Shown: positions 1,831 to 54,098, numbered from the stretch's first letter. The stretch is 64,000 bases of DNA from Candidatus Omnitrophota bacterium (GCA_035352955.1 DAOPYQ010000003.1:76901-140900); one strand, 5' to 3'. Notes: generated by a model from the letters alone, not told the origin. Made by a program: numbers and translations.

Positions 1831-1851
1831 GGGGTTTCTCCGATTTGGGAT

Positions 1852-20273: not shown

Positions 20274-20452
20274 GACCCCTACGCTTCCGTTTGACCGGTC
20301 CAACCCCCTGGGTTAGACGACTCATTTCGCGCCATTGTAACCGATTTCCTATAAACCTTTCAACCTTTCACAACTTTTCCGTCTAAAACCCACTTCGGAG
20401 ACCCGGTCTCCGAGGCGGTGGGTACGCCGTTCGAAAAAAAACGCCCACGGAT

Positions 20453-20536
20453 AAAAAAAAAGAGGTTCGTGACCGAGTGGGGATCTTTGTGGCCACGAAC
20501 CTCTGCAGGTGAGTCGAGACCCGTAAGTCTCGCAAT
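20453..20536 (-). ncRNA. candidate ~84-nt small RNA (promoter-to-terminator unit)
   Basis: It begins about 7 nt after a TTGACA-N17-TATAGT promoter. It contains hairpin CGAGAC-UUACGG-GUCUCG and a 10-bp terminator stem (gaggttcgtg/cacgaacctc) followed by U9. I recognise no known RNA family. Confidence 0.4.
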
Positions 20537-20542
20537 GAAGAT

Positions 20543-20571
20543 ACTATACTCCCAAAATTCCGGACTGTCAA
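20543..20571 (-). promoter_or_regulatory. near-consensus sigma-70 promoter
   Basis: The minus strand reads TTGACA gtccggaattttgggag TATAGT. The spacer is exactly 17 nt by my count. Confidence 0.5.
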
Positions 20572-20656
20572 CGGCGCGGCCCGCCTTCTCACCCCATATT
20601 TTCATTGCAAAAACCCCAAGTAAAACCCGGCCTTGCTAGAATGACGGGCAGGAAAA

Positions 20657-20698
20657 TAAAAAAAAAAAGAAGGGGCACGGTTTTCCCATATCCCCTTC
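20657..20698 (-). terminator. rho-independent terminator of the giant gene
   Basis: Minus strand: GAAGGGG-atatgggaaaaccgtg-CCCCTTC followed by T11, about 35 nt after the stop at 20734. Confidence 0.7.
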
Positions 20699-20733
20699 TT
20701 TGGTAAAGCCTTACGCCGCGATCGCAACCGGCT

Positions 20734-23700
20734 TTAAGCGGCCGACGCGATCCTCTGGAACGCTTCGAACAGCACCTGCATGTTCTGCAGCATGCCATCG
20801 ATACTCTTCTTCGTGATCGCCAAACCCGAGGCGCCTTCTTTTTCAAAACCCGGCATTTTCAACAAAAGATCGGCCATCTGCTCCGGCGTCATTCCGCTCA
20901 GATTCCAGATCTTCTGGGCGCCGCGCATAGCCACACGACCCACCGCAGCCTGCGAAACGGCCCCCTGAACATTGTCCGCTTCGCGAACCACCACCCCGGT
21001 GACAAAGCTAAGATTCAGAAAGCTCAGAGCATTCGCCGTACCGGTCAAGACATACCCTTTCCCTTTAACCAGGGCCAGGAACTCCGCTGCCTTGGAATTA
21101 AAATCGTGCGCTTGAGGATCAAAAACCCTGATATCCACCTGGCTGATGAACGCCGGCCGGTGGATCTTATTGGCCCACGCCGCAAAATCCAGGAGAACCT
21201 GACGCACCGCGGCAGCATCGATCCCCGAGCCCAGCACCATCGTATCAAACCGCATATTGGGGTTCAGAAGCAGATTAAACTTCAAGAGAGCCAGAAACAC
21301 CTTCGGGTCCTTGAAGCCTTCGATCACTTTCACCAGACGGCCCGCATCCCCGCTGATCGGCAGAGGCATATTCGGCACCGCATTCTGCAACTGCTCCGTC
21401 AGACCCGTAATGGTCCGCTCATCGACAAGCAATGAGATCGCGATGATCACCGGCGCGAGAGCTTCCATATTGTCGCGTGCAATCCCCTCCGTCAGCGCCA
21501 CCGCCACCTTAAGCGCCGGCGTTTTGAGCTCAGATTCCGGGATCCCCATCGCCTTCAGCGCTTCCCGTGTCGTCTCCATCGCCGTCCGGACCTGCTGCTT
21601 TGTAAAATTCTGTTCGACCCACTTGGCTACGGCAAGCTGCCTTTCGGAAACAGAAACGTCCCGGCGTTCGGCGCGCCCGGCTTCGGCGGCCTTGACCTTT
21701 GCAGCCTCCTCGAGACGCTCAGCCTTAGCCTTCGCCGCGAGAGCGAGAGCGATCGCCCGCATCTCATCAAAAGTCGCGCCCCGGTCGATCGCCGTCTTGA
21801 TCGCCACACGCCCGGCGCCCTCAATTTCAGCCAGCGACACCACCGCCGAAAGCAAGAGAACCTCCCGCTCATCCGACGTGGTCGCCTTGTCCGTAATAAT
21901 GTCGCGAAGCGAACGGAAACCAACGATTTCCCGGCCCTCGGCATCGCGGGCGGGAGCATCAAAACTATTAAAGAAATCCGTGTACTTCTGATATCGAGTG
22001 TCCGTCTGTCCCAGAATGAGCCCGGCCGCATCGGGCTTGGCATCCGCGGGAATCTTCAACACGTTCCAGAAGGCGTGACTGACCTGGTGCTTGGATTTTG
22101 CAGCCGCATTCCACACCTTGAAGTCCGCGATGTTATTGTTGTCCTCAAGCGCCAGACCCGGCACCTCGCGGCTCAGAATCTCAAGAGCTTTGTCCGAGGT
22201 CATTTCCAATTTCCCGGCGCGCGGCGACAAAGCCGTACGAACGGACGGCGCTTCGATCCTAGTGACAGCCTCCTCGCTCAGAACCCACTCCTGGGGAAAC
22301 GTATTGATCCCGGAAGTCAATTTTGTGAGATCCAGATCCTTCGGGATCATGACATTCTGCGGCGCGATCCCCCGCACCAGGTGGCGGATGTAAAGATTTC
22401 CTTCAAACGCGAACACCGCAACCACAAAATTCGCATCCAGAACAAACTGCGGATCGTTCGAGCTGACCCGGATCTCCACTTTTTTCTTGTCACCGCTCAA
22501 GCGCACATTGATACGGCTCGGAACACCTTCCAGGTCCGTCCTCGCGGCATTCACGGAAGTTTCGAGAGCCGTCGCCTCCAGTACTTCGGACTGGATCGCC
22601 AACGCCTGCTCCTTCGTGTATGTTTTGAGGCTCCGGATAAGCTCCTGAAGCTCGGTTTTCGTAGCACCTTCGGGGAACCCATACGTTTCAACGATCGTCT
22701 CCAACGTCCGCACAAGCTCCGGCCTTGAATTTTTCATGAAATACGCATTCTCAAACGCACGCACTCTCAAACCCAAATTGGTATCTTGCGGCGTGAACGA
22801 CCGCTGTCTTATAATGGAAGTCAAACGGAAAGCCTCGTCCAATTCGTTCAACGTCATCTCCCGCTTCTCTGCGCGGAGGGTGGAAAGGGCCAGCGACGAA
22901 AACAACCGGAAAGCCTCGTCGGCGCGGGCCTGATCCTCCGGAGCAACGGTAAAGAGTTTCGTTTTGATCGATCTCAGGGTCATGGAGGTATCATCCCCAT
23001 CGTCGTACTTTTGTTTCGCCATCTGGATGATCCCGACGAGGTCCATCGTCGTGATCCCCCGAGCCACACTCTCAGCTTCCGTCAAAGCGCTCAGGATCTG
23101 CGGAGGATCGATCACCCTTGAAAGATCCGAAGCCGTCAAGATGGGCTCTTCCTGTCCGACAACCGTTGGCGTCCTCTGAGCCGCAGTAGAAACCCTGATC
23201 GCTGAAGCCAGCGGCGGCACATTCGCCGCCATGGGAACATCCCGCTTCTCACTGTTGGCGCGAAGTTCCTTCGAAACAGCGGCCTTCGCGGCTTCCGAGA
23301 ATTTCCCGGTAAAAAACGGATTCAATTCCGCGAAAGTATCGCGACTGACCGAGGGCCTCCGGGCCTTCCGGTACAATTGCCACGCGCCATAGATCGCCTT
23401 AACCAACGATTCGTTGCCGGTGGCACTCTGGGTAGCCGCCCAAAACGCGGCATCGATCTCTCTGTCCGTTAAAGTCCCCTGTTGAACAACCTGCAGCGCT
23501 GTCCAATTCACCGTGGGGTCACCCTCCTCCGTCAGACCACGCTTCTCCGCGCGGATTTCTTTGCGCGACGCGGCATCGAGCATGGGACGAAGCCCGTCCA
23601 AATAGTGTTTCACGGCCGCATTGTAGGCCTTGGCTTTGAAAACGCTTGTATTGGCATAAAGATCCTTAACCGTTTTAAGAGCATCCCGGTCCAGCGGCGT

Positions 23701-26700
23701 GTCCACCGGTGTCGCGCTATCAAGTCCGACGCCTCCGTTCCGTCCTTTCCCCAAATCCGCGGCCTCGCTCCGCACCGCAGCGCCGCCGGCGTTAAACCGG
23801 TAGAAAGAGATCAGATCATCGAACAGCGCCATCCATTTTTCGGCACGCACAGCCTGCGAATTCTTGGGATCCAAGGCTCCCGCAAGAAGATCTTCCAAAA
23901 CAACGTGCTTGCGCGCGCGAACGATCTTGACAAGATCCTCAACCGTTTTCGGGGCTTCGACCAGCGCCCCAGCCGTCACAACGGTCCCCGTGGGAGTCAC
24001 GACCATCCCGGCCGTCGCAGCAACCGGAACCGACGTCATGAGCAGACCCGCAGCCGCCAGTTCCTGGATTCCGAGCCGCTTTTCCGCCCGGGTGATGTCC
24101 ACGATCTCGTTAGAACCAAGTAAAACCACCATCACACGGCCTGTTACCTGCCGGACCTCGGTACTGTTCGCGTTCAAGCCGGGCATGTGCTCGTCCCAAA
24201 GTTGACGCAAGATCGGAAAGACAATCCGCGAATTGACCGCGTAGAAATCAAGCCCTTTGAATGCGCCGACACCTTTACGCGCAACGATGGCATTCGCAAG
24301 CGCTTCGATCAGCCGGTCCTGCTCATCAGCGGCAGTAGCCAGACGCAATCTCGTCGCTAAATCAATGACCTCGGGCGCTGTGCTTAAGAATTCTATAGCT
24401 TCCAGATTTATTCCCTTCACCTCCGAGCGGGCGGGAGGACGGACCCCGAGCCGCTTTTCCGCCCGGGTGATGTCCGCGATCTCGTTAGAACCAAGTTTGA
24501 TCCGGTGAGTCACGGGACTCATGGCCCGGTTAATGACGACCCTGTAGGAAACTCCCGTCTTCAATTGTCCTTTGAGGAGCTCCTGCCAACGGAAAGTCCG
24601 ATCATCGAAAACAATCGTCGGCCCATCCGTCGTAACATGCACCGTCATCCCGATCCCCTTTGACGCATTCTTTTCCAAACGTCCCGCCAGGAAAGGAACA
24701 ACCTGGTCGGCGGAAAGTACTTCAGTCGCCAACTGGCGCGCGGCAACGACAACGTCGCGATTAGCCTCAACATGGGCAGTCTCGATCTTCCGCGCCAGAT
24801 CCTCTTTCTGAAGATCGTCGTAGAATTCGGCTCCCAACACGCCCTGCGAAATCTCCGCCGCGGAATAGCCCTTCGAATCGGACTGTTTGATCAGCTCGAT
24901 CTGCGCCGCATTCAAGCCGAAACTCTCAAGGCCCTCGGCCAACCTCGCCATAAGCTCGAAATTAACACCTCGCAGCGTCAGCGCAAGCTGCAACGTCTCA
25001 CGCTGGATCGCCAACGCGAGCCGCTGTCTCGCGCTTTTGATCCGGCCTTTAACAAGATCCCGGTCGATCGACAGGAAATCCTCGGCAAGCTCCGCGGTGG
25101 ACGCACGGTCCAACTCACTGAGCCTCTTAAACTGCGGAACCGCGCCCGTCCAGAGACGCAGCTGCAATTCGATACGTTCGGGGCTGGTTGTGAGCCACCG
25201 TTTAAGAGACTCACTCTGCTTCGGAAAAAGCGTCACAAAAGATTCGGCCAGATCCCTGAAAAGTCCGGTAAAGAGCATCGCCAAAGGTAAAAACAAAGCG
25301 ATCCCCCCCACCGCCAACGCGTACACCGGGATCCCGAGAGATGCATTAGCGAACGCCACCGCCGCCGCCACAGACACTCCGGCACTCAGGGCGAGACTCC
25401 CCCCGCGGATAACCTGCATAGTCTTTTCAGAAAGCGGTGACACCGAAGGCTCTTCGAGGGAAGATTGGTAGACCGCTGACCAGACGAACTTGAGGACTGC
25501 GCGGATCACGGTCGTAGAACCGGCCGCGATCAGCAAAAACACTGCGATAGTCGGCAGAACCGCCAGCGTACCGACTGCTGCTGCCAATGCCTGCAGAAAG
25601 AAAAACGCCGGGATCAACGCCAGCATCCAGCTGGCCGTTTCCAGGCTTCCACGAATCCCGGCTTCCCTGTCCTCACGGGCCTGTTCGGCTTGCATCGCTA
25701 CGGACATCGCCGGATTGAGCGCCGCGTTTGCGAGATTCACCTGACGGCGTTCCGCGACACGCGCGGCTTCTCCCGAGACGTAATAAGAGATCTGGTCATA
25801 AATAACCGCAAGCGACGGGATCGCAAGTGTCGCCGCGACGATCAGGGGCATGATAAAAATCCCGGTCACCCCGGCCAACACTCCGCTGATGAACGGATAC
25901 ACAAGACCGGCGATCGACGTCGCTCCGGCGGCGATATTCGCGCCCAGGGACGTTCCGATCGTCATAAAATCCTTTTTCTCGCCGCGCTTTTCCGCGCGGA
26001 TAGAAAAAGCAAAAGCATTGAAAGCTCTTTCAGCGACCGCAACGGTGATCCTGCCATCATCATCCACCTGCGGGGCGAAAAGAAGCTCCCACAAACGCGT
26101 CAGATCCGGATTAGCAGACATCTTCGGGATTTTCCCTGTCGCCCGCACCATGACCCCCTGACGTTGATGATAAGCCTCCCAGGCCGCCTGGAGGACATTC
26201 CAAACATTTTTGTCGCGTTCCACCGCCTGAGTAAGAACAGCCCTATGAAAAGCCGACTCGATCTCCACCGGGGTCGGCTTAAAATCCATCCCCATCGGAT
26301 CCTTGGCATACGCCTCAACAACCCGGGCAAAGGTTTCTTCGAGAATAGCCGCGTCCTTGATCCTTTTAGGGTCAAAACACTGCGTCTTAAGCGTCGCCAG
26401 GTCCATGTTGGCGGGCGTTCCCAGGCGCTTTTGTTCCTCTAGCCATTTGGAGTACTGTCCCATGGCTGAATCAAGAGCATCCTGGATCTTAGAGATCTTT
26501 ATTTTCTCAGGGGACTCCTCGGCCGCGTTCCGGAACGATGAGCTTTCAATTTCGGCGGCCAATTGGACCCTTTCAAAAGCCCTCCGGATCTGGAAAGATT
26601 CCAGATCCGCCCGCAGGTCCGCGCCGCGTCTTTCCGAGCGCAGACTGGACACGAACAGATCATAGGCCTCATCCACATCCGCCTGCGTGATCCGGGGTTC

Positions 26701-29700
26701 CGCGGTTTTGGGTTGACGGCCCGTCTGTTCGGTAAAAAACGACTTCATGCCGGACAACGTTAAGGCGGCTATTTTCTTGTAAGCTTCCGCTTGTCCCCGG
26801 GCAAGTGTCACCTCTTTGTTGTAAGCCTCCCAAGCCTGTTCGAGAACATTCAACGCGGAACCCGTCGCAAGGGCTGACGCCCGGTTAAAAGCGAACCACG
26901 CCCGAAGACCATTCACCGGCGTTTGCGGATTTACTCCGGTCGTTTCTTCGGCGCGTTTTTCCTGGCGCGACGCAGGCAGGCTCAATGGCTTGAGGATCCA
27001 AAGAACGCCGGCCACAGTGATGGTCGCGTTGGAAGTCGCTGTGGTGGCCCGGAGAATTATCGGCGTTTTGCGGTGACGAACCTCCATAAGAACGGCGTTA
27101 ACGCCCTGGAATTCCTCGTCGGTTAAAAACCGTCCGAGGCTCCCGCCTTTTTTACCATCCTCATATTGAACCACCGGATATTTCGCAAGGACCGCTTCAA
27201 GACGGCTCTGTTCCGCAACATTGTTGGTTTGCTGGGCCTGCGTAAGGGCTTCGGCGATCTGACCGATCTGGACCCGGACCTGGTCGGCGTCGACCTGGAG
27301 GAACTTCGCAAGATCCGCGACCTGCTTCTCGGTAAATACTATCTTCTGCTCCCCGGCAAGCTGCGTCGCCCGTTTTTCTTGGCGTCCGGCAAGTGTCACC
27401 GGGACGGAAAAAAGCGGCCGTATCTCGATCGCATTGTCCTTCATACTCACCGAATATGTTTTTTCCATCGTCTCGGGAATCGAGTCGGGAAGATCCATCT
27501 GAAGCTTGAACTGCGCCAATTCCCCGAGATTTAAACTGTTTTTCGTCAACATCTGATCGTCCCCGGAATAGTTCCCCTCAAAAATGGGGTCTTTTCCGAC
27601 GAGATCGCTGTCCCCGAATCCGAAGATCCGGAGGGCCACGGAAGTCCTGCGGCCTTTATTTCCACGCGCGGTCAGCGTCCAAAGAGTATTCACCACGCGC
27701 GGAATGTTCTCCAATTGCGTTCCGCGGAGCTCCTTGCGGCCAGCGGCATTGAGAAACCCATTCGTCCCGCCAATGATCCCGGCAAAAAGTGTCGGAGAAT
27801 TGAGAAAAGCATTTGTCATGATCGTGTAGCTCGGCGTTTGGGGAGTCGCCTGAAAACCCCGGCTCACGACCGCCCAACCATTCGTATCGGTCAACCGATT
27901 GTTCGCGACAATATAAAAAACCATGTTGGTAATGTCCGAGGAAGTCCCCATCGTCCAACCCGCGAGAACCCCAGTGGGGGTTTTCTCAAGAAAATTCATG
28001 CGAGGAGAAGCCTCAGTGGTCTCGCCTTTACCAAACGAAACAAGTTGCGTCCCCACAGGCACTTCATTTGTTGTAAAAGCACCCGCCACACTCGCTATCG
28101 AGAGAGCAAAGATCAACCCAAGTGCGCGCCACATAGCCGGCAACATTTTCAAATTAACGGGCCCGCGTTCTGACGGCGTTCCGCGGAGCTCCTTGCGGCC
28201 AGCGGCATTGAGAAACCCATTCGTCCCGCCAATGATCCCGGCAAAAAGTGTCGGAGAATTGAGAAAAGCATTTGTCATGATCGTGTAGCTCGGCGTTTGG
28301 GGAGTCGCCTGAAAACCCCGGCTCACGACCGCCCAACCATTCGTATCGGTCAACCGATTGTTCGCGACAATATAAAAAACCATGTTGGTAATGTCCGAGG
28401 AAGTCCCCATCGTCCAACCCGCGAGAACCCCAGTGGGGGTTTTCTCAAGAAAATTCATGCGAGGAGAAGCCTCAGTGGTCTCGCCTTTACCAAACGAAAC
28501 AAGTTGCGTCCCCACAGGCACTTCATTCGTCGTGAAAGCTCTCGCCGAGAGCACTGCCCCAAACGCGAGAGACACGGCCAGCAAAATCGATTGTAATCCC
28601 CGGGAAATATAGATCGGCGATTTCACAACGGGCGCCGTTTCCTCAACGCCGAGGCCAAGCGCTGTAAAAAAGTTCATACCCAACCTGACCCCCAGCGCGC
28701 TAAGCGACCTCATCAGAGTGACATCCGTAAGCACCGGCATCACGGCCAAAAAGTCCCGGATCTCCTGCGTCAAACCCGGTTCGAGCGGACGTGTCGCGAT
28801 AATGTTATTCAACTCGGCAGCGATCTTTTCTTCCTTCTGGGCCCGCGTCATGCGCTTTTCCGCGCGGGTGTACGTGACCAGGATCGCCGGATTCCCAAAC
28901 CTGGAAGGACGGATTTGCACAACAAACGGCCCCTTACCGTTAACAGCCGCTAAAGCGTTCGTCAGGCTTTCCGGACCGGAATAATTGACCGGTTGCTCCG
29001 CCGTATCGCCGCCCATGATGAGAAAAACTCTTGCGGAAGGATTCAGTTCGACAAGACGGGCCACGGCTTCACGGACCCCGTCCAGATTGTCCACCTGCTT
29101 GGGTCCACGATAGTCCCGCCCGTCGATCACAGCGTCCACCTCGCCCCTCTTTTCCGCGCGGGGAGTACCCACGTCCCGATCGTCTTGAATCACGCCACCC
29201 GCAACCGGACCCATTTTTAGTAGATTCATATCCCCCGTAGGAATTTCCGGGGATTTCATCCGCGTGGCGGGTCCGTCCGGAAAGATACTTTTGGAAAGAC
29301 TCGCTCTCTCGTTCCTGTTGCGGATCCAGCGGGCGGCCGAAACCGCTCCGGCGACAACCCCCACGCCAAGGATCACGGCGAGAGACACGCCGGTCGTAAG
29401 AAAAGCCAGTCCTGCCGCCGCCAACGCGATCGCGACGCCGCCGAGAACAATGCTGTCTTTCCAGGCAGGCTGAAAATAAACCATCGAAATTTTGGAGAAA
29501 TCGAACTTCCCCGACGTGAGATCAGGGATCTTCCACTCGGCCAGCATTCTCTTGGCCAGTGTTTCCCTTTCATTAATACTAAAAAGCCTGTCTTGTAGCA
29601 AATGGTGTGCGAAGTTCGTCCTCTCGTCCTGCAGCAGCCACGGACTTTGGGCGGTCTGGGGAAGCTCCCGCTTTTGGTCCTCAGACTTCCCGCCGTTAAT

Positions 29701-31788
29701 GGCAAGAAGCCGCATAAGCTCGTTAACTTTCTCGGGAGTGTAGATCGCGTTAAGCTTTTCGATCGCAGCCTGGCGGACCGCCGGATCCTCACTTCCCAGA
29801 TCCCTTAGCGATGCCGCGGCAATTTCATTTCCCTTGTCCAAGGTCGGCGCAAGCATCTCAGGCAAAATCTGCCCCATTTGAACGGCAATCGTGTCGTCGA
29901 CTATGGCAGTCGCACCGTCGATCCCGACCTGGTCGGGACTGACCTTGCGAAGAACGCGGTACGTTTCACCGCCCTCTTTCGCTTGGACGAGCCGCAACTC
30001 ATTGCGACGAGCCATGGGCCCGTCATTCACGTCAGGAAGGATCCCGGCAGGTGTTGGGACTTCTGCCACTTTGGTTGCGGTCGCAAGTAATTTGCCCAGG
30101 ACCCCCAGTTCCCCAACACCCTGCGCATCCTGGCCGACAGGTCCTTTGAGCGGCTGAGCGAGAAGGGTTTTTTCGACAAAAGACAGCTCGAAATTCTGCT
30201 TTCCGTCCTGGAGCATGGTGGAGCGGTAAAGTCTCTCGTCGGATTTTTCACTAAGGCGCGGGGTGACGATCCCATAGCTCACGGAATTTTCGCGGAAAAG
30301 GTCGCTCATGCCGTCCGTGTGAAAACCGCCCGTGATAAGGACGGCCTTCGTGATCTTGCGCTGGCTCATGGCGTTCTGCATTTCTTTATAGAAGACGCCT
30401 TCACGCTGACGGGCGAAACCGTAGAACTCAAGGCCGGTCTTGAACAGCTCGGTCATCTTTCCGCTAAAAGCCTTGGGCATGACCTCCTGGTCTTTGCGGA
30501 CCGAGGTATCCCCCGCGGCAATGATCGCGGTCTTCAGGCGTTCGACAAGGTTCGTCACGGTCACACGATCCCCGGCATCGACCAGCTCGCGCCACTGCGT
30601 GCGGCTCAACTCCAGATGCAAAAGCTTACGCAAAAGCTCACCGTCCCTGTAAAGGGCAAGGAGGGCCTTCTGCTGAGGCTCCTTGGCTAAGGCATCGAGC
30701 ATCTGCGTAAAAAGGTATTCAATCTCCGCGAACAGGACCTTGGGGTCAAGTTCGGCCCGGAGCGTCACGTAACCGGCAAAAAGGCTGAACGCAGGATAAT
30801 CGCTGAATTTGAATCCTTTGGGGGCGACTTCAGCGGCAAGGCGCTCGAGCACGTCGCGCGGAGAAACTTCCTGCGCGGATTTTCCGACGGAGATGCTCCC
30901 TTCATTGAAACTTTCAAGCGCGGCAAGAAGTTCTTTCGAGACGCCCTTCGTTTTGAGCATTTTGAGAAGCGCGGCCTTTTCTTCGAGTCCCTTGGCTTTG
31001 TCCAGGGACTTTTCCATTTCCTGGATGGCCAGAAGGCGCGTGATCTGCGGCCAGCCGGCCTGGGCGAAAAGGCTGTTAAGATCGACATCGAGGATTCTCC
31101 TGGACTGTTTGGCGAGCTGCTGAACGAAAGGCATGAATTCGCGGCGGCCCAGCTCGAAACGTTTCCAGTCGGCGATCAGGGCGCGCGTCTCGGGCGTAAA
31201 GACCTTGGAGGCGGCCCGGTCGAGCTTCTGATCAAATCCCTGAAAGAAACGGTTGACGTCGGGTTCGGCGCCGAACACTTTCTTCAGCGCTTCGTAGTTG
31301 GCCTTGTAAAGAGGCGCCTGCTCGATGCCGAGTGCTTCGACGTTCTTCTCGTTCTCCATCAGGAACAGTTCGGAACCGGTCAGCTCGCCCTGCTTGGCGA
31401 GTTCGTCGCACAGTTTAAGATTGCGTTCTTCATCGGGAAAAAGGCGGAGATAATCCGCATCGAGTTTGGTCGAGGCCCCTTCCACAAAAATGGTCGTGAA
31501 TCCGTATTTCTTGTTCATGTGCTCCAGAAGTTGCTTGATCTTCATCTGGGCTTGATAATTGGCGTGCGCGTTCTGGATATGAAGGATGAATTGCGGTGCA
31601 GTAGATGCGGGCGCTTCGTAAAGAGCATCGACGGTGCCGAGATCCACGGGAACATCAATGCTTAAATAAGTGGGCAGTTCTCTCTTGGACGCAATTTCGA
31701 TATTAGCACCGGGGGCCCCCCATGCGATCTGTGTCGTGAGAAAGCAAACCACGGTCGCCGCCGCGATCACCTTCAGGCCCTTTTTCAT
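20734..31788 (-). CDS. giant modular secreted/membrane-associated protein (3,684 aa), function unknown
   Basis: One uninterrupted ORF with an ATG start and GGAGGA 8 nt upstream. Signal peptide MKKGLKVIAAATVVCFLTTQIAWGA. Hydrophobic clusters are encoded near 29335-29460, 28540-28600, 28075-28146 and 25240-25980. Contains the repeated RAEKR motif and internal tandem duplications. Confidence 0.9.
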   Translation of the reverse strand: MKKGLKVIAAATVVCFLTTQIAWGAPGANIEIASKRELPTYLSIDVPVDLGTVDALYEAPASTAPQFILHIQNAHANYQAQMKIKQLLEHMNKKYGFTTIFVEGASTKLDADYLRLFPDEERNLKLCDELAKQGELTGSELFLMENEKNVEALGIEQAPLYKANYEALKKVFGAEPDVNRFFQGFDQKLDRAASKVFTPETRALIADWKRFELGRREFMPFVQQLAKQSRRILDVDLNSLFAQAGWPQITRLLAIQEMEKSLDKAKGLEEKAALLKMLKTKGVSKELLAALESFNEGSISVGKSAQEVSPRDVLERLAAEVAPKGFKFSDYPAFSLFAGYVTLRAELDPKVLFAEIEYLFTQMLDALAKEPQQKALLALYRDGELLRKLLHLELSRTQWRELVDAGDRVTVTNLVERLKTAIIAAGDTSVRKDQEVMPKAFSGKMTELFKTGLEFYGFARQREGVFYKEMQNAMSQRKITKAVLITGGFHTDGMSDLFRENSVSYGIVTPRLSEKSDERLYRSTMLQDGKQNFELSFVEKTLLAQPLKGPVGQDAQGVGELGVLGKLLATATKVAEVPTPAGILPDVNDGPMARRNELRLVQAKEGGETYRVLRKVSPDQVGIDGATAIVDDTIAVQMGQILPEMLAPTLDKGNEIAAASLRDLGSEDPAVRQAAIEKLNAIYTPEKVNELMRLLAINGGKSEDQKRELPQTAQSPWLLQDERTNFAHHLLQDRLFSINERETLAKRMLAEWKIPDLTSGKFDFSKISMVYFQPAWKDSIVLGGVAIALAAAGLAFLTTGVSLAVILGVGVVAGAVSAARWIRNRNERASLSKSIFPDGPATRMKSPEIPTGDMNLLKMGPVAGGVIQDDRDVGTPRAEKRGEVDAVIDGRDYRGPKQVDNLDGVREAVARLVELNPSARVFLIMGGDTAEQPVNYSGPESLTNALAAVNGKGPFVVQIRPSRFGNPAILVTYTRAEKRMTRAQKEEKIAAELNNIIATRPLEPGLTQEIRDFLAVMPVLTDVTLMRSLSALGVRLGMNFFTALGLGVEETAPVVKSPIYISRGLQSILLAVSLAFGAVLSARAFTTNEVPVGTQLVSFGKGETTEASPRMNFLEKTPTGVLAGWTMGTSSDITNMVFYIVANNRLTDTNGWAVVSRGFQATPQTPSYTIMTNAFLNSPTLFAGIIGGTNGFLNAAGRKELRGTPSERGPVNLKMLPAMWRALGLIFALSIASVAGAFTTNEVPVGTQLVSFGKGETTEASPRMNFLEKTPTGVLAGWTMGTSSDITNMVFYIVANNRLTDTNGWAVVSRGFQATPQTPSYTIMTNAFLNSPTLFAGIIGGTNGFLNAAGRKELRGTQLENIPRVVNTLWTLTARGNKGRRTSVALRIFGFGDSDLVGKDPIFEGNYSGDDQMLTKNSLNLGELAQFKLQMDLPDSIPETMEKTYSVSMKDNAIEIRPLFSVPVTLAGRQEKRATQLAGEQKIVFTEKQVADLAKFLQVDADQVRVQIGQIAEALTQAQQTNNVAEQSRLEAVLAKYPVVQYEDGKKGGSLGRFLTDEEFQGVNAVLMEVRHRKTPIILRATTATSNATITVAGVLWILKPLSLPASRQEKRAEETTGVNPQTPVNGLRAWFAFNRASALATGSALNVLEQAWEAYNKEVTLARGQAEAYKKIAALTLSGMKSFFTEQTGRQPKTAEPRITQADVDEAYDLFVSSLRSERRGADLRADLESFQIRRAFERVQLAAEIESSSFRNAAEESPEKIKISKIQDALDSAMGQYSKWLEEQKRLGTPANMDLATLKTQCFDPKRIKDAAILEETFARVVEAYAKDPMGMDFKPTPVEIESAFHRAVLTQAVERDKNVWNVLQAAWEAYHQRQGVMVRATGKIPKMSANPDLTRLWELLFAPQVDDDGRITVAVAERAFNAFAFSIRAEKRGEKKDFMTIGTSLGANIAAGATSIAGLVYPFISGVLAGVTGIFIMPLIVAATLAIPSLAVIYDQISYYVSGEAARVAERRQVNLANAALNPAMSVAMQAEQAREDREAGIRGSLETASWMLALIPAFFFLQALAAAVGTLAVLPTIAVFLLIAAGSTTVIRAVLKFVWSAVYQSSLEEPSVSPLSEKTMQVIRGGSLALSAGVSVAAAVAFANASLGIPVYALAVGGIALFLPLAMLFTGLFRDLAESFVTLFPKQSESLKRWLTTSPERIELQLRLWTGAVPQFKRLSELDRASTAELAEDFLSIDRDLVKGRIKSARQRLALAIQRETLQLALTLRGVNFELMARLAEGLESFGLNAAQIELIKQSDSKGYSAAEISQGVLGAEFYDDLQKEDLARKIETAHVEANRDVVVAARQLATEVLSADQVVPFLAGRLEKNASKGIGMTVHVTTDGPTIVFDDRTFRWQELLKGQLKTGVSYRVVINRAMSPVTHRIKLGSNEIADITRAEKRLGVRPPARSEVKGINLEAIEFLSTAPEVIDLATRLRLATAADEQDRLIEALANAIVARKGVGAFKGLDFYAVNSRIVFPILRQLWDEHMPGLNANSTEVRQVTGRVMVVLLGSNEIVDITRAEKRLGIQELAAAGLLMTSVPVAATAGMVVTPTGTVVTAGALVEAPKTVEDLVKIVRARKHVVLEDLLAGALDPKNSQAVRAEKWMALFDDLISFYRFNAGGAAVRSEAADLGKGRNGGVGLDSATPVDTPLDRDALKTVKDLYANTSVFKAKAYNAAVKHYLDGLRPMLDAASRKEIRAEKRGLTEEGDPTVNWTALQVVQQGTLTDREIDAAFWAATQSATGNESLVKAIYGAWQLYRKARRPSVSRDTFAELNPFFTGKFSEAAKAAVSKELRANSEKRDVPMAANVPPLASAIRVSTAAQRTPTVVGQEEPILTASDLSRVIDPPQILSALTEAESVARGITTMDLVGIIQMAKQKYDDGDDTSMTLRSIKTKLFTVAPEDQARADEAFRLFSSLALSTLRAEKREMTLNELDEAFRLTSIIRQRSFTPQDTNLGLRVRAFENAYFMKNSRPELVRTLETIVETYGFPEGATKTELQELIRSLKTYTKEQALAIQSEVLEATALETSVNAARTDLEGVPSRINVRLSGDKKKVEIRVSSNDPQFVLDANFVVAVFAFEGNLYIRHLVRGIAPQNVMIPKDLDLTKLTSGINTFPQEWVLSEEAVTRIEAPSVRTALSPRAGKLEMTSDKALEILSREVPGLALEDNNNIADFKVWNAAAKSKHQVSHAFWNVLKIPADAKPDAAGLILGQTDTRYQKYTDFFNSFDAPARDAEGREIVGFRSLRDIITDKATTSDEREVLLLSAVVSLAEIEGAGRVAIKTAIDRGATFDEMRAIALALAAKAKAERLEEAAKVKAAEAGRAERRDVSVSERQLAVAKWVEQNFTKQQVRTAMETTREALKAMGIPESELKTPALKVAVALTEGIARDNMEALAPVIIAISLLVDERTITGLTEQLQNAVPNMPLPISGDAGRLVKVIEGFKDPKVFLALLKFNLLLNPNMRFDTMVLGSGIDAAAVRQVLLDFAAWANKIHRPAFISQVDIRVFDPQAHDFNSKAAEFLALVKGKGYVLTGTANALSFLNLSFVTGVVVREADNVQGAVSQAAVGRVAMRGAQKIWNLSGMTPEQMADLLLKMPGFEKEGASGLAITKKSIDGMLQNMQVLFEAFQRIASAA
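24071..24496. repeat. intragenic dispersed repeat: two 51-nt copies (50/51 identical) 375 bp apart
   Basis: 24071..24121 and 24446..24496 both read ccgagccgcttttccgcccgggtgatgtcc[a/g]cgatctcgttagaaccaagt. They encode LGSNEI[V/A]DITRAEKRLG. Confidence 0.85.
27717..28527. repeat. intragenic tandem duplication, period 459 bp, with a 352-bp core that is 100% identical
   Basis: 27717..28068 equals 28176..28527 base for base in my line-by-line comparison. Similarity decays after that (ttgtaaaagc versus tcgtgaaagc). The antisense track ORFs 27656..27958 and 28154..28417 share identical peptides. Confidence 0.95.
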
Positions 31789-31850
31789 GTTTTGTATCCT
31801 CCTCGGATCAGATTATGAACCCTTTTTAAAAGATTAAAAAACATAAAGAA

Positions 31851-31878
31851 AATGTAACATATCACGGCCAGTTTGCAA
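31851..31878 (-). promoter_or_regulatory. candidate sigma-70 promoter directly upstream of the giant gene
   Basis: The minus strand reads TTGCAA-N16-TACATT, about 60 nt upstream of the ATG at 31788. Confidence 0.3.
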
Positions 31879-31960: not shown

Positions 31961-32689
31961 TTAAATGGTTACGAATTCAACGCCAAAACCAAGTTGCTCC
32001 TTGCGAACTTCCTCTCGACGGATCTTCCCGGCAACCTGGTACTCCTCCGGAAAATTGGCACTTGGGAAGATATGAATGTCGACCTTGAGTCCCGCAAGGG
32101 GCCCAAGAGCCGAGATCCGATGCGCCGCACCAAGGTCCAAATACTCCGCAAACAGCCCTCCTTCGCTGATATTGGTCGCGATGGCGCGCGTTTGGAGAAC
32201 CTCCCCCTTCGGGCTTGTGATCGTGAGCTTCAGCGGGATCGCCACATGCATACGATGACTGCGGCGCTTTTCGAGCTGGTGCCCCGGCGAATCCTGCGGG
32301 TTTTTTACCCCCGGCGCCATGATGCGCTTTTCCGCGTCCTTGTCAAAAAGGAACGGCCCGAAACTTTCCGCCACTTCCTTTTCGTCCGCGCACACGTCGA
32401 CCTTCCCGGTAAAGCAATTATCCTCGAGATAATGGGCCATCTCCGCGGAGGCCCCATAGATCACACTGTGCTTGGGGCGGATGCAGACCGTCAGCAGCCT
32501 TCGCAGACCGATCGCGTCAAGCGCTCCGGCCTCCTGGAAATTCAAAATGATCCTCTGCAGACGGTGGCGCCGAATGTTCTTCTGGATCTTCCAGGCAACC
32601 TCCTGCACGGATTCAAAGGTCGGCTCTCCTTTCAAGTCAAAGACAGCGACCCCTCCGATCTCTCTGGTGGAATAGTGGAATTTGCTCAT
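31961..32689 (-). CDS. STAS domain - PilZ domain fusion protein (putative c-di-GMP receptor)
   Basis: The N-terminal STAS fold (VAVFDLKGEPTF...IILNFQEAGALDAIGLRRLL) has Ala where SpoIIAA-type proteins carry the phospho-Ser (DAIG versus DSSG). The C-terminal PilZ motifs are RRSHR (RxxxR) and NISEGG (D/N-x-S-x-x-G), about 30 aa apart. Confidence 0.85.
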   Translation of the reverse strand: MSKFHYSTREIGGVAVFDLKGEPTFESVQEVAWKIQKNIRRHRLQRIILNFQEAGALDAIGLRRLLTVCIRPKHSVIYGASAEMAHYLEDNCFTGKVDVCADEKEVAESFGPFLFDKDAEKRIMAPGVKNPQDSPGHQLEKRRSHRMHVAIPLKLTITSPKGEVLQTRAIATNISEGGLFAEYLDLGAAHRISALGPLAGLKVDIHIFPSANFPEEYQVAGKIRREEVRKEQLGFGVEFVTI

Positions 32690-41187: not shown

Positions 41188-41643
41188 ATGAACCCACTGA
41201 CCAAATATCAAAGCCACTGGTTCGATCCGCTCGAAACGATGTCGGACCTTCAAGGGGATATCAACCGCCTTTTCTCAACCTCGCTCCGGAGAAGCCAGCC
41301 GGGATTCGCCGCAGATTATTTTCCGGCAGTCGATCTCCATGAGTCGGAGACTCAATACGCCCTTTCCATGGACGTGCCCGGGATGGAACGGAAAGACCTG
41401 GACATCTCCGTAACCGGCAACACGCTCACGGTCAAAGGCGAGCGGAAGAGCGAGGAAAAAAAGAAAGAAAAGGGATGGTTCTATTCCGAACGGAAATACG
41501 GATTTTTCCAGCGATCGATCGAACTCCCGACCGAAGTGGACGGGGACAAAATCACCGCCACCTACAAGGACGGGGTGCTTGAGTTGCTCGTTCCGAAATC
41601 GGAAAAAGCCCGGCCCAAACAGATCCGGGTCGATGTAAAATAA
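41188..41643 (+). CDS. Hsp20/alpha-crystallin small heat-shock protein
   Basis: The alpha-crystallin domain reads PAVDLHESETQYALSMDVPGMERKDLDISV...GVLELLVPK. RBS GGGAGG. Confidence 0.93.
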   Translation: MNPLTKYQSHWFDPLETMSDLQGDINRLFSTSLRRSQPGFAADYFPAVDLHESETQYALSMDVPGMERKDLDISVTGNTLTVKGERKSEEKKKEKGWFYSERKYGFFQRSIELPTEVDGDKITATYKDGVLELLVPKSEKARPKQIRVDVK

Positions 41644-41650
41644 ACGCCCG

Positions 41651-41694
41651 GGGGACAGGTTCCTGTGACCGACCTGTCCCCTGCGGATTTTTTG
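41651..41694 (+). terminator. rho-independent terminator (possibly partial) after the first hsp20
   Basis: ggggacaggt-tcctgtgaccg-acctgtcccc followed by tgcggatttttt. Confidence 0.65.
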
Positions 41695-41740
41695 TGTTCG
41701 CCAGGAGTGACTCAAAGAAGTAAACAGAGGAGGTTCTTCC

Positions 41741-42454
41741 ATGACTGAATCCGATACGCCCCAAAAGAAGATCCAGGCATCCCATGTAATAATCGCGTTG
41801 CTTATTCTCGTCGTTTTGCTGCAAACGGCGGTCCTTCTGCACCAAAACCGCCGGCAGGCCTCGCTCGAACGGCAGCAACGCAAAGAGACTTACGAAGCCG
41901 TTCTTCCACGCCCTCCTTTCAGAGGGCACGCATTGGCAGCGAACCGCGCGACGCCGCAACCGGTCGCAGCCAATCCCGCCGCAAGTTTTTTCGAGGAAGA
42001 TCCGTTCGAGGAATTCGACGCGGTGTCGCGGAGGATAAGCAATATGATGCGGAGCGCCATGATGTTCAGCGCCCCGGCACTGCAAAGCATGCGGCAGGCG
42101 ATGAACCAGGACCTTGGCTCCGCGTTCTCGCCGTCGGTCGATCTTGAAGAAACGGAAAAATCTTATATCGTGCGGAGCGATCTTCCGGGTCTCGAAAAGG
42201 ACAAGATCAATCTGACGGTCCGGGATAACGCTCTCACGATCGAGGGTATGCGCGAAACGAGCCAGGAAACCCAGGACACGAGCAGCGGTTTTTACGCTCA
42301 CGAAAGGAGCTATGGCTCCTTCTCGCGGACCGTCCCCCTCCCCGGCCCGGTGGATGAGTCAAAGATCGCCGCCGAATACAAAAACGGCGTCTTAACGATC
42401 ACCTTGCCGAAGATCAAGGGGCAAACGAACGTGCAAAAAGTCCCGATCCAATAA
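41741..42454 (+). CDS. Hsp20-family protein with an N-terminal transmembrane anchor
   Basis: The N-terminus SHVIIALLILVVLLQTAVLL is hydrophobic. The C-terminal alpha-crystallin domain reads PSVDLEETEKSYIVRSDLPGLEKDKINLTV...GVLTITLPK. Confidence 0.88.
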   Translation: MTESDTPQKKIQASHVIIALLILVVLLQTAVLLHQNRRQASLERQQRKETYEAVLPRPPFRGHALAANRATPQPVAANPAASFFEEDPFEEFDAVSRRISNMMRSAMMFSAPALQSMRQAMNQDLGSAFSPSVDLEETEKSYIVRSDLPGLEKDKINLTVRDNALTIEGMRETSQETQDTSSGFYAHERSYGSFSRTVPLPGPVDESKIAAEYKNGVLTITLPKIKGQTNVQKVPIQ

Positions 42455-43230: not shown

Positions 43231-43250
43231 AAAAAAGAGGTCCGACCTCT
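43231..43250 (-). terminator. small terminator at the end of the pilus cluster
   Basis: Minus strand: AGAGG-tcgga-CCTCT followed by T6. It overlaps the TAG stop of the last gene. Confidence 0.45.
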
Positions 43251-43713
43251 AAAGATCGAGTTTGCGGGTCGTCTGGTCTTTAAGATTCGTGACAATGACC
43301 GAATCGGGAGCGATCGAAGTGACTTCATAATCCCCGATCCGGCCCTTGGGCTCGATCATCTGTCCGTTGAGGATCGCAAACGGCTGCGTGGGATTGTAAA
43401 TAATCCCTTCGAGAACGATCCCCGCCACGACGGGAGCTGCCGGGGGCGTAACGACATGGGACACCGCAACCGAAGGTTTCGGAATCCGGACCGGACGATT
43501 CCCGGCAAGGCTCGCCTCCCCCTTCACGATAAAAACATAAGCCCCGGCCGCCACAAAAATACCCCCCATAAAAAGAAAAACGATAAGTCTCCAGTTGTTT
43601 TTTTTCCGGACAACTTCGATTTTCGGCATCGAAACGTCCCGCACCGGAACGACCGGCGCTTCGGATTCCTTCGTCGCCTGGATCTGTTTCAGGTAATCAT
43701 AAACAATGCTCAT
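43249..43713 (-). CDS. GspB/PilP-like bitopic protein (T2SS protein B-like C-terminal domain)
   Basis: I prefer the ATG at 43713, which forms an ATGA overlap with the ExeA-like stop. One transmembrane helix (WRLIVFLFMGGIFVAAGAYVFIV). C-terminal LEGIIYNPTQPFAILNGQMIEPKGRIGDYEVTSIAPDSVIV. Confidence 0.6.
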   Translation of the reverse strand: MSIVYDYLKQIQATKESEAPVVPVRDVSMPKIEVVRKKNNWRLIVFLFMGGIFVAAGAYVFIVKGEASLAGNRPVRIPKPSVAVSHVVTPPAAPVVAGIVLEGIIYNPTQPFAILNGQMIEPKGRIGDYEVTSIAPDSVIVTNLKDQTTRKLDL

Positions 43714-44516
43714 TGGATCTCTTCCATCGAAGCGAGCAGGATATCCTGGTCGAGCACCTTCTGTTTTCGGACGAATCCGAGCAACAGCGCGCGATCGCAA
43801 AGAAGATTGATCAGACGCGGAACACCTTTCGAAAAGTCGTTGATCACCTGGTACGCCTCCGGCGTCACCATGACTCCTTCCGCCCCCGATCGGGAAAGGC
43901 GGAAATCCACGTAGGCCTTTACATCGCCGGAGTCGAGCGGCTGAAGGTCATATTTGATCACGACGCGCTGATAGATCTGACGGAGGTCATAACGGCGAAG
44001 GTTGGCCTTGAGCTCCGGCTGCCCCACCAGAACGATCTGGAGCAACTTGCCGTGCTTCGTCTCGAGATTCGACAAAAGGCGTATCTGCTCGAGCTGGCGC
44101 GGCTTCAGGTTCTGTGCCTCATCGATCACGAGCACCGCGTTCCCCTGCTGCAGGCTCAGATCGATCAAGAATGCATCGAGTTTTTTTACAATATCAAGGC
44201 GGGTCTTTTTCTCGGCTTCAAGCCCGAAATCCTCAACGATCGCCTGCAAAAGCTGGATATCGCTGAAGTAAGGGCTCAGGATCAGCGAGGTCCGGACGGT
44301 CTTGGGAAGGCGTTCCATAAGCGCTTTGCAAAGCGTGGTTTTCCCCGTCCCGACTTCCCCGGTGATCAAAAGAAGTCCCTTACGTTCTTCGATCCCGTAC
44401 ATCAGGGACCCGAGGGCTTCCTGATGGGAACGGCTTTCAAAAAAGAGATCGGCGTCGGTCGTGATGTGAAAAGGCTGGGTCTTGAATCCGTAAAACTCGC
44501 AAAGGGCCGTGGTCAT
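43710..44516 (-). CDS. ExeA/GspA/MshM-family AAA ATPase
   Basis: ITGEVGTGKTTLC, VLVIDEAQNL, LVGQPEL, PRLINLLCDRALL. ATGA overlap with the secretin stop. Confidence 0.88.
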   Translation of the reverse strand: MTTALCEFYGFKTQPFHITTDADLFFESRSHQEALGSLMYGIEERKGLLLITGEVGTGKTTLCKALMERLPKTVRTSLILSPYFSDIQLLQAIVEDFGLEAEKKTRLDIVKKLDAFLIDLSLQQGNAVLVIDEAQNLKPRQLEQIRLLSNLETKHGKLLQIVLVGQPELKANLRRYDLRQIYQRVVIKYDLQPLDSGDVKAYVDFRLSRSGAEGVMVTPEAYQVINDFSKGVPRLINLLCDRALLLGFVRKQKVLDQDILLASMEEIQ

Positions 44517-46054: not shown

Positions 46055-46074
46055 GATTCCTCCGTTCACTCTGC

Positions 46075-46548: not shown

Positions 46549-46550
46549 GG

Positions 46551-48702: not shown

Positions 48703-48719
48703 GAACCGCCTTCGTTCGC

Positions 48720-49642: not shown

Positions 49643-49657
49643 TTTTCGCTTCCCACC

Positions 49658-50686: not shown

Positions 50687-50705
50687 TGGAACCCCCGCGA
50701 AAGGA

Positions 50706-50740
50706 GCGTGAGCGGCAGCCGCTTTGGCCGCCGCTCACGC
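50706..50740 (-). promoter_or_regulatory. 11-bp hairpin directly after the major pilin gene (attenuator/stabiliser candidate)
   Basis: gcgtgagcggc ... gccgctcacgc. On the transcribed strand a T8 run precedes it, and no U-tract follows. Confidence 0.4.
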
Positions 50741-50762
50741 ATTACGAAAAAAAAGGCGACAA

Positions 50763-51131: not shown

Positions 51132-51179
51132 TTTCGTTCTCCTTTCGCTGAACTGCTGCACTCAATTAACAACTTTAGA

Positions 51180-54064: not shown

Positions 54065-54098
54065 AGGTCCTCCGGAAGCAGCCGGCTGAAATGCGCGC

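Follow-up and report, generated by a model that had tools for sequence, protein, structure and literature searches.

The largest feature in the 64,000-nt stretch of DNA analysed here (hereafter, the window), which comes from a Candidatus Omnitrophota bacterium (GCA_035352955.1, DAOPYQ010000003.1:76901–140900), is a single open reading frame (ORF) on the minus strand, 20734..31788, that spans 11,055 nt and encodes a predicted product of 3,684 amino acids (aa). This product consists of a conserved N-terminal head, an array of unrelated modules and a conserved C-terminal tail domain, with a short peptide motif, hereafter the separator, recurring at the module joints, and it may be a polyprotein that is cut at that motif. 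The frame begins with an ATG, contains zero internal stop codons and, like all of its features described below, lies on the minus strand. Direct reading of the sequence places a Shine–Dalgarno element, GGAGGA (31797..31802), 8 nt from the ATG at 31788, and an intrinsic terminator (20658..20699) just past the stop codon, the latter made up of an 8-bp stem, AGAAGGGG (20699..20692) and CCCCTTCT (20675..20668), a 16-nt loop and a T11 tract. A consensus terminator scan did not list this element because its loop exceeds the 8-nt limit of the scan. Upstream, the candidate promoter TTGCAA-16-TACATT (31878..31851) matches 8 of 12 consensus positions and is not reported by a promoter scan, and Rfam gave no match near the gene. 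A preliminary description of the window had listed an uninterrupted 11-kb frame, a strong ribosome-binding site, a T11 terminator, a signal-peptide start and a promoter at 31851..31878 that it called weak, and each of these was verified on re-reading, the weakness of the promoter included.

The giant ORF is real, because four assembled public contigs encode exactly the same 3,684-aa product; the longest listed of them (ENA ERZ795026 NODE_10) measures 204,942 bp. In a region with a GC content of 56%, an 11-kb stop-free frame equipped with a ribosome-binding site and a terminator is beyond chance; orthologues occupy the same syntenic slot in other Omnitrophota metagenome-assembled genomes (MAGs), and hundreds of independent assemblies hold the same succession of head, modules and tail, full-length products of 3 to 7.5 thousand aa among them. 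That the gene is an assembly chimera, a fusion of genes through sequencing error or a decaying pseudogene is, on these grounds, scarcely credible. Such an origin could be argued from the short-read metagenome assembly that is the source of the sequence, from an exact 352-nt tandem repeat whose copy number could have been mis-assembled, and from the other-frame continuations at two related loci (L039 and L076), which show that frameshifts, real or erroneous, occur in the family; chimeras could not, however, yield the separator statistics reported below.

The repeat in question belongs to a tandem duplication (27717..28527) with a spacing of 459 nt, in which each copy encodes a domain beginning FTTNEVPVG behind its own, diverged signal-like leader. 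The two copies are 100% identical over 352 nt (27717–28068 = 28176–28527), which suggests recent gene conversion. Judged by its sequence, the duplication is not a simple assembly artefact, because the 5' part of the unit differs between copies at third positions only and the leader peptides have diverged; the short-read assembly does, however, leave some doubt about how many copies there are. TRF (Tandem Repeats Finder) returned zero tandem repeats in the gene, where the 459-nt unit is present in two copies only.

At the protein level, the product starts with a signal-peptide-like segment (aa 1–25, MKKGLKVIAAATVVCFLTTQIAWGA; 31714..31788), a type of N-terminus that homologues keep together with an F-x-x-TQ pattern, and cleavage by signal peptidase I after AWG is plausible. 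The head domain follows (aa ~45–540; 30169..31656), and the C-terminal end is formed by the tail domain, M14 (aa 3377–3684; 20737..21660), which has a Rossmann-like alpha/beta fold in the predicted model and ends in FEAFQRIASAA. Between the two lie 12 unrelated modules, M2–M13. Hydrophobic stretches are scattered along the chain: one long or two transmembrane helices at aa 778–822 (29323..29457), about six helices within M9 at aa 1956–2181 (25246..25923), and further signal-like segments at aa 1064–1086 and aa 1216–1240. The preliminary description had seen here a secreted multi-transmembrane protein, and the alternation of soluble and hydrophobic parts stands, including the cluster it had placed near 29335–29460 and the block of at least six helices at about 25240–25980; the status of a single protein is doubtful, as several hydrophobic segments right after separators resemble signal peptides. 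The same description had recognised none of the usual building blocks of giant proteins. In agreement with it, nothing in the whole protein rises above threshold in Pfam or NCBIfam, including the Ig, cadherin, RTX, YadA, FhaB, PKS, NRPS and Rhs blocks typical of giant proteins, but a conserved head of ~540 aa and a conserved C-terminal domain are present after all.

When aa 1–881 were searched against a set of 5.8 billion proteins, 51 homologues were obtained, the named ones nearly all from Candidatus Omnitrophota or Omnitrophica, and all 51 aligned to the query over aa ~1–540 only. Searches with aa 882–2447 and aa 2977–3684 returned nothing at E ≤ 1e-3 in the same set, where the 8,000 candidates with the most shared words are scored and sensitivity is limited. 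A scan of one genome per GTDB species gave 386 relatives, every labelled one of them from Omnitrophota, and 79 GTDB loci were retained and fetched with 10-kb flanks, several genomes having multiple paralogues. With a HMMER profile of the head run against 1.84 billion cluster representatives, 9,333 proteins were matched at E ≤ 1e-3 and 6,124 at E ≤ 1e-30; among the best 150 of the 9,333 matches, the head domain is N-terminal in all and lengths range from ~500 to 7,498 aa. The homologues mark the giant ORF as an Omnitrophota gene; more specifically, its product is of intermediate size within a family of modular giants that is specific to Omnitrophota and has a common architecture of signal peptide, head, n modules and tail. 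Full-length giants in the fetched loci reach 3,665 (L003), 3,716 (L017) and 3,813 aa (L044), and a dozen further loci carry ORFs longer than 3,850 aa, each of which runs past the edge of its 10-kb flank. The early remark that giant ORFs occur in small-celled, host-associated lineages fits the Omnitrophota homologues and the published Omnitrophota giants, a lineage that is probably host-dependent.

The family genes of two loci, L029 and L069, are tandem paralogues. At two other loci (L039:13066–21615 and L076:15112–21696), a 'short' family gene is followed by an overlapping giant ORF in another frame that bears separators and has no head; this arrangement could be a frameshift, whether a sequencing error or programmed, or a natural split into a head and its cargo.

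The head has a Tiki/TraB/ChaN/EreA-like alpha/beta core, split by a large helical insert (aa ~160–475). In an alignment of 28 members, residues H75, Q81, E103, G104, E156, R462 and T486-G-G-F-H490 are near-invariant, and the invariant residues persist across 81 proteins of both separator classes introduced below. No Pfam family covers the domain. Among the weak Pfam matches, PF04187 ('Haem-binding uptake, Tiki superfamily, ChaN') recurs most, in 2 of the 28 members, and its best E-value of 0.006 falls short of the gathering score; a profile search against PDB sequences found nothing for the head, and Foldseek against PDB with the whole head model gave non-significant matches to helical proteins only, an uninformative outcome because the helical insert dominates the model. 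The head shares its alpha/beta core with the Tiki/TraB/PrgY/GumN/ChaN/erythromycin-esterase superfamily (MEROPS M96 Tiki; PF01963, PF04187, PF05139); its His after the first strand, Glu after the second and G-x-x-H motif (GGFH) after the last are candidate counterparts of the catalytic residues there, and the signal peptide in front of it suggests an extracytoplasmic location, as in PrgY and Tiki. It differs from the superfamily in the ~300-residue helical insertion, in a first motif that reads N-A-H and not G-x-x-H, and in the lack of a match at threshold to any of the three Pfam models. With moderate confidence, then, we regard the head as a divergent member of this superfamily that retains intact His and Glu residues, and, because of that membership and those residues, as probably an active hydrolase, probably located outside the cytoplasm.

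Iterated hidden Markov model searches identified the tail domain in 64 of 168 family proteins; 61 of these 64 have it at the very C-terminus, and its carriers span the range from 'short' forms of ~1,000 aa to the 7,498-aa protein P0098. Its predicted model (mean local confidence, pLDDT, of 74) is Rossmann-like, and the matches of a fold search were of generic Rossmann and GT-B-like kinds only, headed by Asp1/Gap1 at high root-mean-square deviation. The modules between head and tail are hypervariable. M2–M12 have no detectable homologue in the 5.8-billion-protein set, and the closest relatives, with heads that are 71–76% identical, have no detectable counterpart of them in their ORFs, where only M13 and M14 recur. 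Some modules of the protein are paralogous to one another: M3 matches M4 at 83%, M7 matches the C-terminal half of M8 at 31%, and M10 matches the end of M9 at 35%. Recognisable modules of relatives include HATPase_c, S-adenosylmethionine (SAM)-dependent methyltransferases, Glucosamine_iso, PFK, receiver and HEAT domains.

The preliminary description had also advised cutting the chain at RAEKR motifs, and this became its most useful lead: RAEKR is the local form of a family-wide motif, R-[S/A]-E-x-R. In this genome the motif takes the form R-[A/Q]-E-[K/R]-R, and the giant protein carries 13 sites, seven of them RAEKR and the others the variants RQEKR, RSERR, RAERR and RKELR, plus one degenerate RNELR. 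The last (aa 595–599; 29992..30006) stands where relatives have their first separator. From there on, RAEKR closes M1 (aa 877–881; 29146..29160) and M2 (aa 975–979; 28852..28866), RKELR closes M3 (aa 1198–1202; 28183..28197) and M4 (aa 1351–1355; 27724..27738), RQEKR closes M5 (aa 1469–1473; 27370..27384) and M6 (aa 1608–1612; 26953..26967), and RSERR closes M7 (aa 1717–1721; 26626..26640). RAEKR ends each of the next five modules: M8 (aa 1931–1935; 25984..25998), with the hydrophobic block starting ~20 aa later, M9 (aa 2442–2446; 24451..24465), M10 (aa 2567–2571; 24076..24090), followed by a weak hydrophobic segment at aa 2579–2597, M11 (aa 2746–2750; 23539..23553) and M12 (aa 2972–2976; 22861..22875). 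RAERR then ends M13 (aa 3372–3376; 21661..21675). Eleven occurrences of R-x-E-[KR]-R in this protein compare with 0.12 expected, and R[AQ]EKR is absent from all six frames of the other 53 kb of the window.

The motif is enriched through the family as well. The homologues carry 51 R-S-E-x-R sites against 7.0 expected, and in the family tails (125,634 residues) R[AS]ExR was observed 327 times against 6.3 expected, RSExR alone being enriched 108-fold, while the control patterns K[AS]ExK, R[AS]ExK, R[AS]DxR, R[AS]QxR and R[TG]ExR, as well as permuted patterns, all stayed at background. An independent set of 117 proteins gave 612 sites in 276,477 tail residues, or 2.2 per 1,000 aa, with up to 23 sites per protein and a median spacing of 237 aa. 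The core of the motif is strict: position 2 is S (81%) or A (19%), and x is V, A, M, S or T. Outside the family giant ORFs, the motif is at background in the fetched loci, and the other motif-bearing ORFs there are tandem paralogues, upstream giants at the edge of a locus, or other-frame continuations after a 'short' family gene. The residue at x is uniform in some proteins or genomes, as illustrated by RSESR, found nine times in L008 and again in L012 (the same MAG), by 15 copies of RSEVR in P0148, and by RAEKR here. A divergent clade (P0125–P0165, L079 and L080) is devoid of R-[S/A]-E-x-R and carries instead [A/G/S][A/S]SLG, enriched ~100-fold, with sites at aa 581, 2535, 2566, 3787, 4587 and 5437 of P0137. 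At least three RSExR sites are present in 110 proteins and at least three SLG-type sites in nine, and no protein has both. In both classes the first separator follows the head domain.

A text search for the pentapeptides led to PL7 alginate lyases only, whose active-site strand (RSELR) conforms to R-S/T-E-L/V-R. This resemblance, together with a MARTX-like logic in which conserved ends enclose a variable array of effector type, is what could place the protein in a known class of adhesin, toxin or enzyme (MARTX-like or polymorphic toxin, RTX, FhaB or Ig-repeat adhesin, or PL7 lyase). Such a placement is very improbable: Pfam and NCBIfam reveal no RTX or other glycine-rich repeat, cysteine protease domain (CPD), C39 or S8 peptidase, Rhs, FhaB, Ig or cadherin domain, and profile searches of PDB sequences were empty. 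The PL7 reading was rejected on its own terms, as the lyase motifs QIH, QVH and YFKAG are absent from the giant protein and YFKAG is absent family-wide.

Separators coincide with the limits of homology. The receiver domain of L017 (1740–1861) is bracketed by RSEVR at 1722 and 1867, and L044 has a receiver domain and a HEAT array that both start 10–12 aa past a separator. Across proteins, 46% of local alignments begin within 25 aa after a separator, compared with 15 ± 5% for randomised positions, and only 25% cross one, compared with 55 ± 7%; six of 32 protein pairs with multiple high-scoring segment pairs (HSPs) are non-colinear. Judging from these alignments, separators mark the boundaries of modules, which are the units of homology.

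The sequence around the motif is also constrained. Upstream of the motif, Pro, Ser and Ala abound and position −1 holds a small residue; at +1, G, A, T and E are overrepresented. Pro makes up 5.5–9.5% of residues from −8 to −1, drops to 0.9% at +1 and 2.7% at +2, and is back at 8.5% at +3. Set against residues after other Arg of the same proteins (26,275 positions), the +1 position of 932 separators is depleted of Pro (1.2% vs 3.9%, p = 1.5e-6), of aromatic residues (1.9% vs 8.2%, p = 3e-16) and of residues of the bacterial N-degron type (15.8% vs 29.7%, p = 1e-22). Hydrophobic segments are positioned relative to separators as well: 28% of those in the tails begin within 20 aa after one (chance, 7%), and separators immediately after a hydrophobic or transmembrane segment are depleted. 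Many of the segments that follow separators look like entire Sec signal peptides, AXA-type site included, and a lipobox-like LALGC is present in one. In the protein studied here, the RKELR at aa 1198 is followed by GTPSERGPVNLKMLPAMWRALGLIFALSIASVAGA|FTTNE, the signal-like segment at aa 1216–1240 ending in AGA|F, and the duplicated FTTNE domain thus stands behind two different leaders of this kind. Several of the hydrophobic segments therefore look like signal peptides of independent pre-proteins.

We infer that the separator may be a proteolytic processing site with the scissile bond after its last Arg, because its chemistry is exact (Arg not Lys, Glu not Asp, a small residue at position 2), because Pro, aromatics and N-degron residues are scarce at +1, because signal-peptide-like segments start right after separators, and because the site co-varies with lineage, both in its uniform x residue and in its exclusive replacement by SLG. 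That the giant product as a whole is a polyprotein cut at its separators is the best-supported reading of its mechanism and, in our estimate, about as likely as not. On this proposal, a putative site-specific endopeptidase would cut after the last Arg of each separator and release the modules as separate polypeptides; those that start with a signal-peptide-like or lipoprotein-like segment could then be exported or inserted into the membrane on their own, and the remaining ones (in relatives, receiver, HEAT, methyltransferase, HATPase, sugar-isomerase and kinase modules) would do their work at whatever place the chain had left them. In effect, such an ORF would be an operon in one frame, through which an ultra-small cell could co-express fast-changing proteins of the envelope and of host interaction. 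More tentatively, with belief in it falling somewhat short of disbelief, the scheme may extend to Omnitrophota giant ORFs in general: these would be true bacterial polyproteins with a phylum-wide, lineage-tuned cleavage code, a dedicated protease and up to dozens of unrelated products, many with their own Sec or lipoprotein signal peptide, in which the TraB/Tiki-like head and the Rossmann-like tail are the sole constant products and the modules are units of very fast cassette shuffling that diversifies proteins interacting with host or prey.

The same data can be read in terms of one uncleaved, membrane-anchored giant, in which separators are uncut joints, be they docking strands with R, E and R on one face, binding sites for chaperones or the translocation machinery, or the n-regions of internal signal-anchors that restart translocation. 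Published work treats Omnitrophota giants as multi-transmembrane, surface-associated single proteins; the many hydrophobic segments right after separators, preceded by two Arg, suit a positive-inside n-region, the linker-like flanks are compatible with a joint, and conserved domains at both ends suggest that an intact chain matters. We nevertheless consider this alternative unlikely. A linker or n-region needs no invariant preference for Arg over Lys, for Glu over Asp or for a small residue at position 2, and an exclusion of Pro at +1 only is left unexplained, as are the ~70% of separators that have no hydrophobic segment after them. An uncut chain threaded alternately through the membrane would, moreover, place the two near-identical, leader-bearing FTTNE domains on opposite sides of it, and the swap to an unrelated [AG][AS]SLG is more easily explained by a changed recognition partner.

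Codon usage at the separators bears on a further alternative. In this gene, the Ala, Glu, Lys and Arg codons of the motif vary synonymously, from which we take selection to act on the peptide. At the same time, across the family the Arg at P5 is encoded by CGC or CGT in 82% of cases (background, 39%) and Ser by TCC in 57% (background, 20%); the last Arg prefers AGG or CGG (loci L002–L080), and the separator regions of the giant gene form a 22-nt DNA repeat family, D2, with 77–100% identity (window positions 23533–29161). Shared descent of linkers, recombination microhomology and translational accuracy or pausing are possible causes of such bias. Separators might accordingly be mainly DNA recombination joints, offering ~15 nt of microhomology for the duplication, swapping or insertion of modules, with the peptide merely tolerated. 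The behaviour of modules as homology units, the non-colinear protein pairs and the unrelated middles, from 1,575 to over 3,900 aa in total protein length, found in one syntenic slot would all fit. As the main explanation this is improbable, as the constraint on amino acids far exceeds that on nucleotides: the codon at x is free and the P1 Arg uses all six codons, residues that one nucleotide change would give, Lys (AAG from AGG) or Asp for instance, are virtually never seen, and the constraints at +1 are at the protein level. Recombination at the DNA level may coexist with a function of the peptide without replacing it, and it probably contributes to module shuffling.

Three narrower readings of the motif were tried and dropped. 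An origin at the RNA or DNA level was considered for CCGCGC-GGAAAA-GCGCGG, which can form a hairpin, and set aside in view of the synonymous codon variation. Internal translation starts after separators were rejected, there being no start-codon preference at +1 and no Shine–Dalgarno-like sequence in the separators of this gene, and so was self-cleavage through a Ser nucleophile, the position being Ala in 19% of sites and in nearly all of those here.

Several observations weigh against the polyprotein proposal. No protease is found among the conserved neighbours of the family loci, an absence that is compatible with an uncleaved chain. The head would be the obvious candidate for the processing enzyme in light of the Tiki and RRSP proteases, but on balance the data speak against that. 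The residues conserved in the head do not differ between RSExR-type and SLG-type proteins, which a single column (N164 versus D) tells apart, and this argues against the head as a separator-specific protease. Location also speaks against it as the cutter: the head probably lies outside the cytoplasm, but the positive-inside rule would put separators ahead of signal-like segments on the cytoplasmic side. The fold assignment of the head is itself moderate, with a sub-threshold Pfam match and a non-significant whole-model Foldseek result. The composition at +1 (Gly, Ala, Thr and Glu, few aromatics) would also fit a flexible linker, ~70% of separators have no hydrophobic segment after them, and the middle modules of this particular protein are without homologues. 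The biased separator codons, finally, indicate that some DNA-level inheritance or recombination contributes to the pattern. A secreted trypsin-fold serine peptidase (Pfam Trypsin_2; 250 aa) is encoded in the window at 4363–5115 on the minus strand, 15.6 kb from the giant gene. Its sequence shows TNAH, TDIA and GDSGSP motifs in addition to a signal peptide and lacks a PDZ domain. Such an S1 peptidase is conceivable as an Arg-directed processing enzyme; nothing links it to the giant gene.

Giant, poorly annotated ORFs with multiple transmembrane segments are a described hallmark of Omnitrophota (West-Roberts et al. 2023, 10.1101/2023.11.21.568195; Seymour et al. 2023, PMC10066038; Nielsen & Lui 2026, 10.64898/2026.06.07.730766), with size cut-offs set at ≥10,000 aa by Nielsen & Lui and at >30,000 aa by West-Roberts et al. 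The studies with these cut-offs describe SecA-like domains as well as peptidase domains of the C39 or S8 type and raise the question of cleavage of the products, and West-Roberts et al. state that the cleavage points are not known, which blocks structure prediction and interpretation. A TraB/ChaN-like head, a conserved tail domain and a motif that recurs along the chain are mentioned neither by West-Roberts et al. nor by Nielsen & Lui. The published giants ('Archaeovorin'-type, multi-enzyme) and the protein studied here come from the same phylum and share a signal peptide, multiple hydrophobic helices, a mostly unannotatable sequence and very fast divergence; the relatives found here carry the same kinds of domain (methyltransferase, HATPase_c, receiver, HEAT, sugar kinase/isomerase), and a cluster of the type II secretion system/type IV pilus (T2SS/T4P) type lies nearby, as the authors report for many giant genes. 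The differences are in size, 3,684 aa here and 7,498 aa for the longest family member among the best 150 matches, and in content, the present protein having no Pfam match to SecA-DEAD, C39, S8, dockerin or glycosyl-transferase/hydrolase domains. The giant-gene phenomenon is thus known, and appears here at a smaller size; what is new is the definition of the family, the fold of the head and, above all, the separator code.

Outside the phylum, MARTX toxins resemble the family in that conserved ends flank a variable, shuffled array of effectors, which in MARTX are freed by site-specific proteolysis between domains, and in that the Tiki-like fold of RRSP, one of the MARTX effectors, is related to that of the head. 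They differ in that the proteins described here have no RTX-type repeats and no inositol-hexakisphosphate-activated cysteine protease domain, in that the separator is R-[S/A]-E-x-R in place of Leu-containing linkers, and in that the array contains internal signal-peptide-like segments; release by cleavage is, in addition, a prediction here. Polyproteins with recurring sites are found in viruses, in RgpA/Kgp/HagA of Porphyromonas gingivalis (cut after Arg or Lys) and in fungal repeat proteins processed by Kex2 (cut after KR). As in these, one ORF encodes many units with a short conserved site at each junction, and the site ends in Arg, preceded in this genome by Lys (-K-R), with Pro excluded at P1'; as in flavivirus polyproteins, internal signal peptides, here signal-peptide-like segments, start downstream units. 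Unlike them, the family consists of chromosomal genes in a housekeeping context of a free bacterial genome, with up to 23 or more sites, unrelated modules and a protease that is putative only. To our knowledge, the consensus of the site (Arg at P5, Ser or Ala at P4, Glu at P3 and Arg at P1) matches no described protease specificity, the nearest being that of factor Xa, I-E/D-G-R. Membership of the giant protein in the MARTX, viral or gingipain-type polyproteins is not supported, and we regard these as its closest mechanistic analogues.

Giant genes being a hallmark of Omnitrophota and other ultra-small, host-dependent microbes, the main papers on them ask whether the product is one chain or pieces. 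The separator offers an objective rule for splitting giants into modules for structure prediction and annotation and makes a precise, falsifiable prediction of neo-N-termini, and its lineage-specific forms, together with the second, exclusive motif, give a starting point in the search for the recognition partner. The family defined here takes in over 9,000 cluster representatives, lies outside Pfam and has a head that is probably a hydrolase. Should processing be confirmed, it would amount to unusually extensive polyprotein expression in a cellular organism and would offer an explanation for the enormous genes kept by minimal cells.

Family genes are held in two conserved housekeeping contexts. 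The window represents context A, with the order thrS-infC-rpmI-rplT-pheS-pheT-mgsA, a STAS-PilZ gene and the giant; the shortest orthologue in this position has 1,575 aa and the longest exceed 3,900 aa. Comparison of the slots shows family genes of L002–L026 and L046 after pheST-mgsA-STAS/PilZ, and those of L025–L073 directly after a UvrD-like helicase gene, near lplA-like and gcvP-like genes. Two chromosomal slots imply at least two ancient paralogous lineages, with independent module turnover in each. The gene immediately upstream of the giant (31961..32689, minus strand) encodes a STAS+PilZ protein, in agreement with the c-di-GMP-receptor-type gene reported there at first, and is a conserved neighbour in context-A loci (16 loci, median distance 181 nt).

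The type IV filament cluster that the preliminary description had placed nearby corresponds to a T2SS/T4P-type cluster at ~44.5–54 kb (44513–54467, minus strand), which encodes a secretin, PilM, two prepilin-type (N_methyl) proteins and GspF/PilC, as well as a 342-aa Laminin_G_3 (ConA-like lectin) protein, a GspE/PilB with a c-di-GMP-binding MshEN domain and a stand-alone receiver protein. At its low end, the cluster overlaps with an AAA_22 ATPase gene (43710–44516). Together with the STAS-PilZ neighbour, the cluster hints at c-di-GMP control of surface functions; any functional link of the giant ORF to the PilZ gene or the pilus cluster is conjectural, and it is for the STAS-PilZ neighbour that conservation was seen, the pilus cluster lying outside the reach of the fetched related loci.

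Elsewhere in the window, four Pfam-negative ORFs of 183–505 aa were noted, 61411–62928 (−), 760–1860 (+), 41552–42301 (−) and 43249–43800 (−), some of which may be spurious frames. Just downstream of the giant-gene terminator, at 20450–20571 on the minus strand, a near-consensus sigma-70 promoter (TTGACA-17-TATAGT, 11 of 12 positions) comes first, then ~90 nt of structured sequence and a T9-tailed hairpin, and lastly a second T-rich stretch. A public gene call of 81 aa at 20360–20605 has no Pfam match, and Rfam likewise returned nothing there; the promoter-led element at 20450–20571 could be a small RNA.

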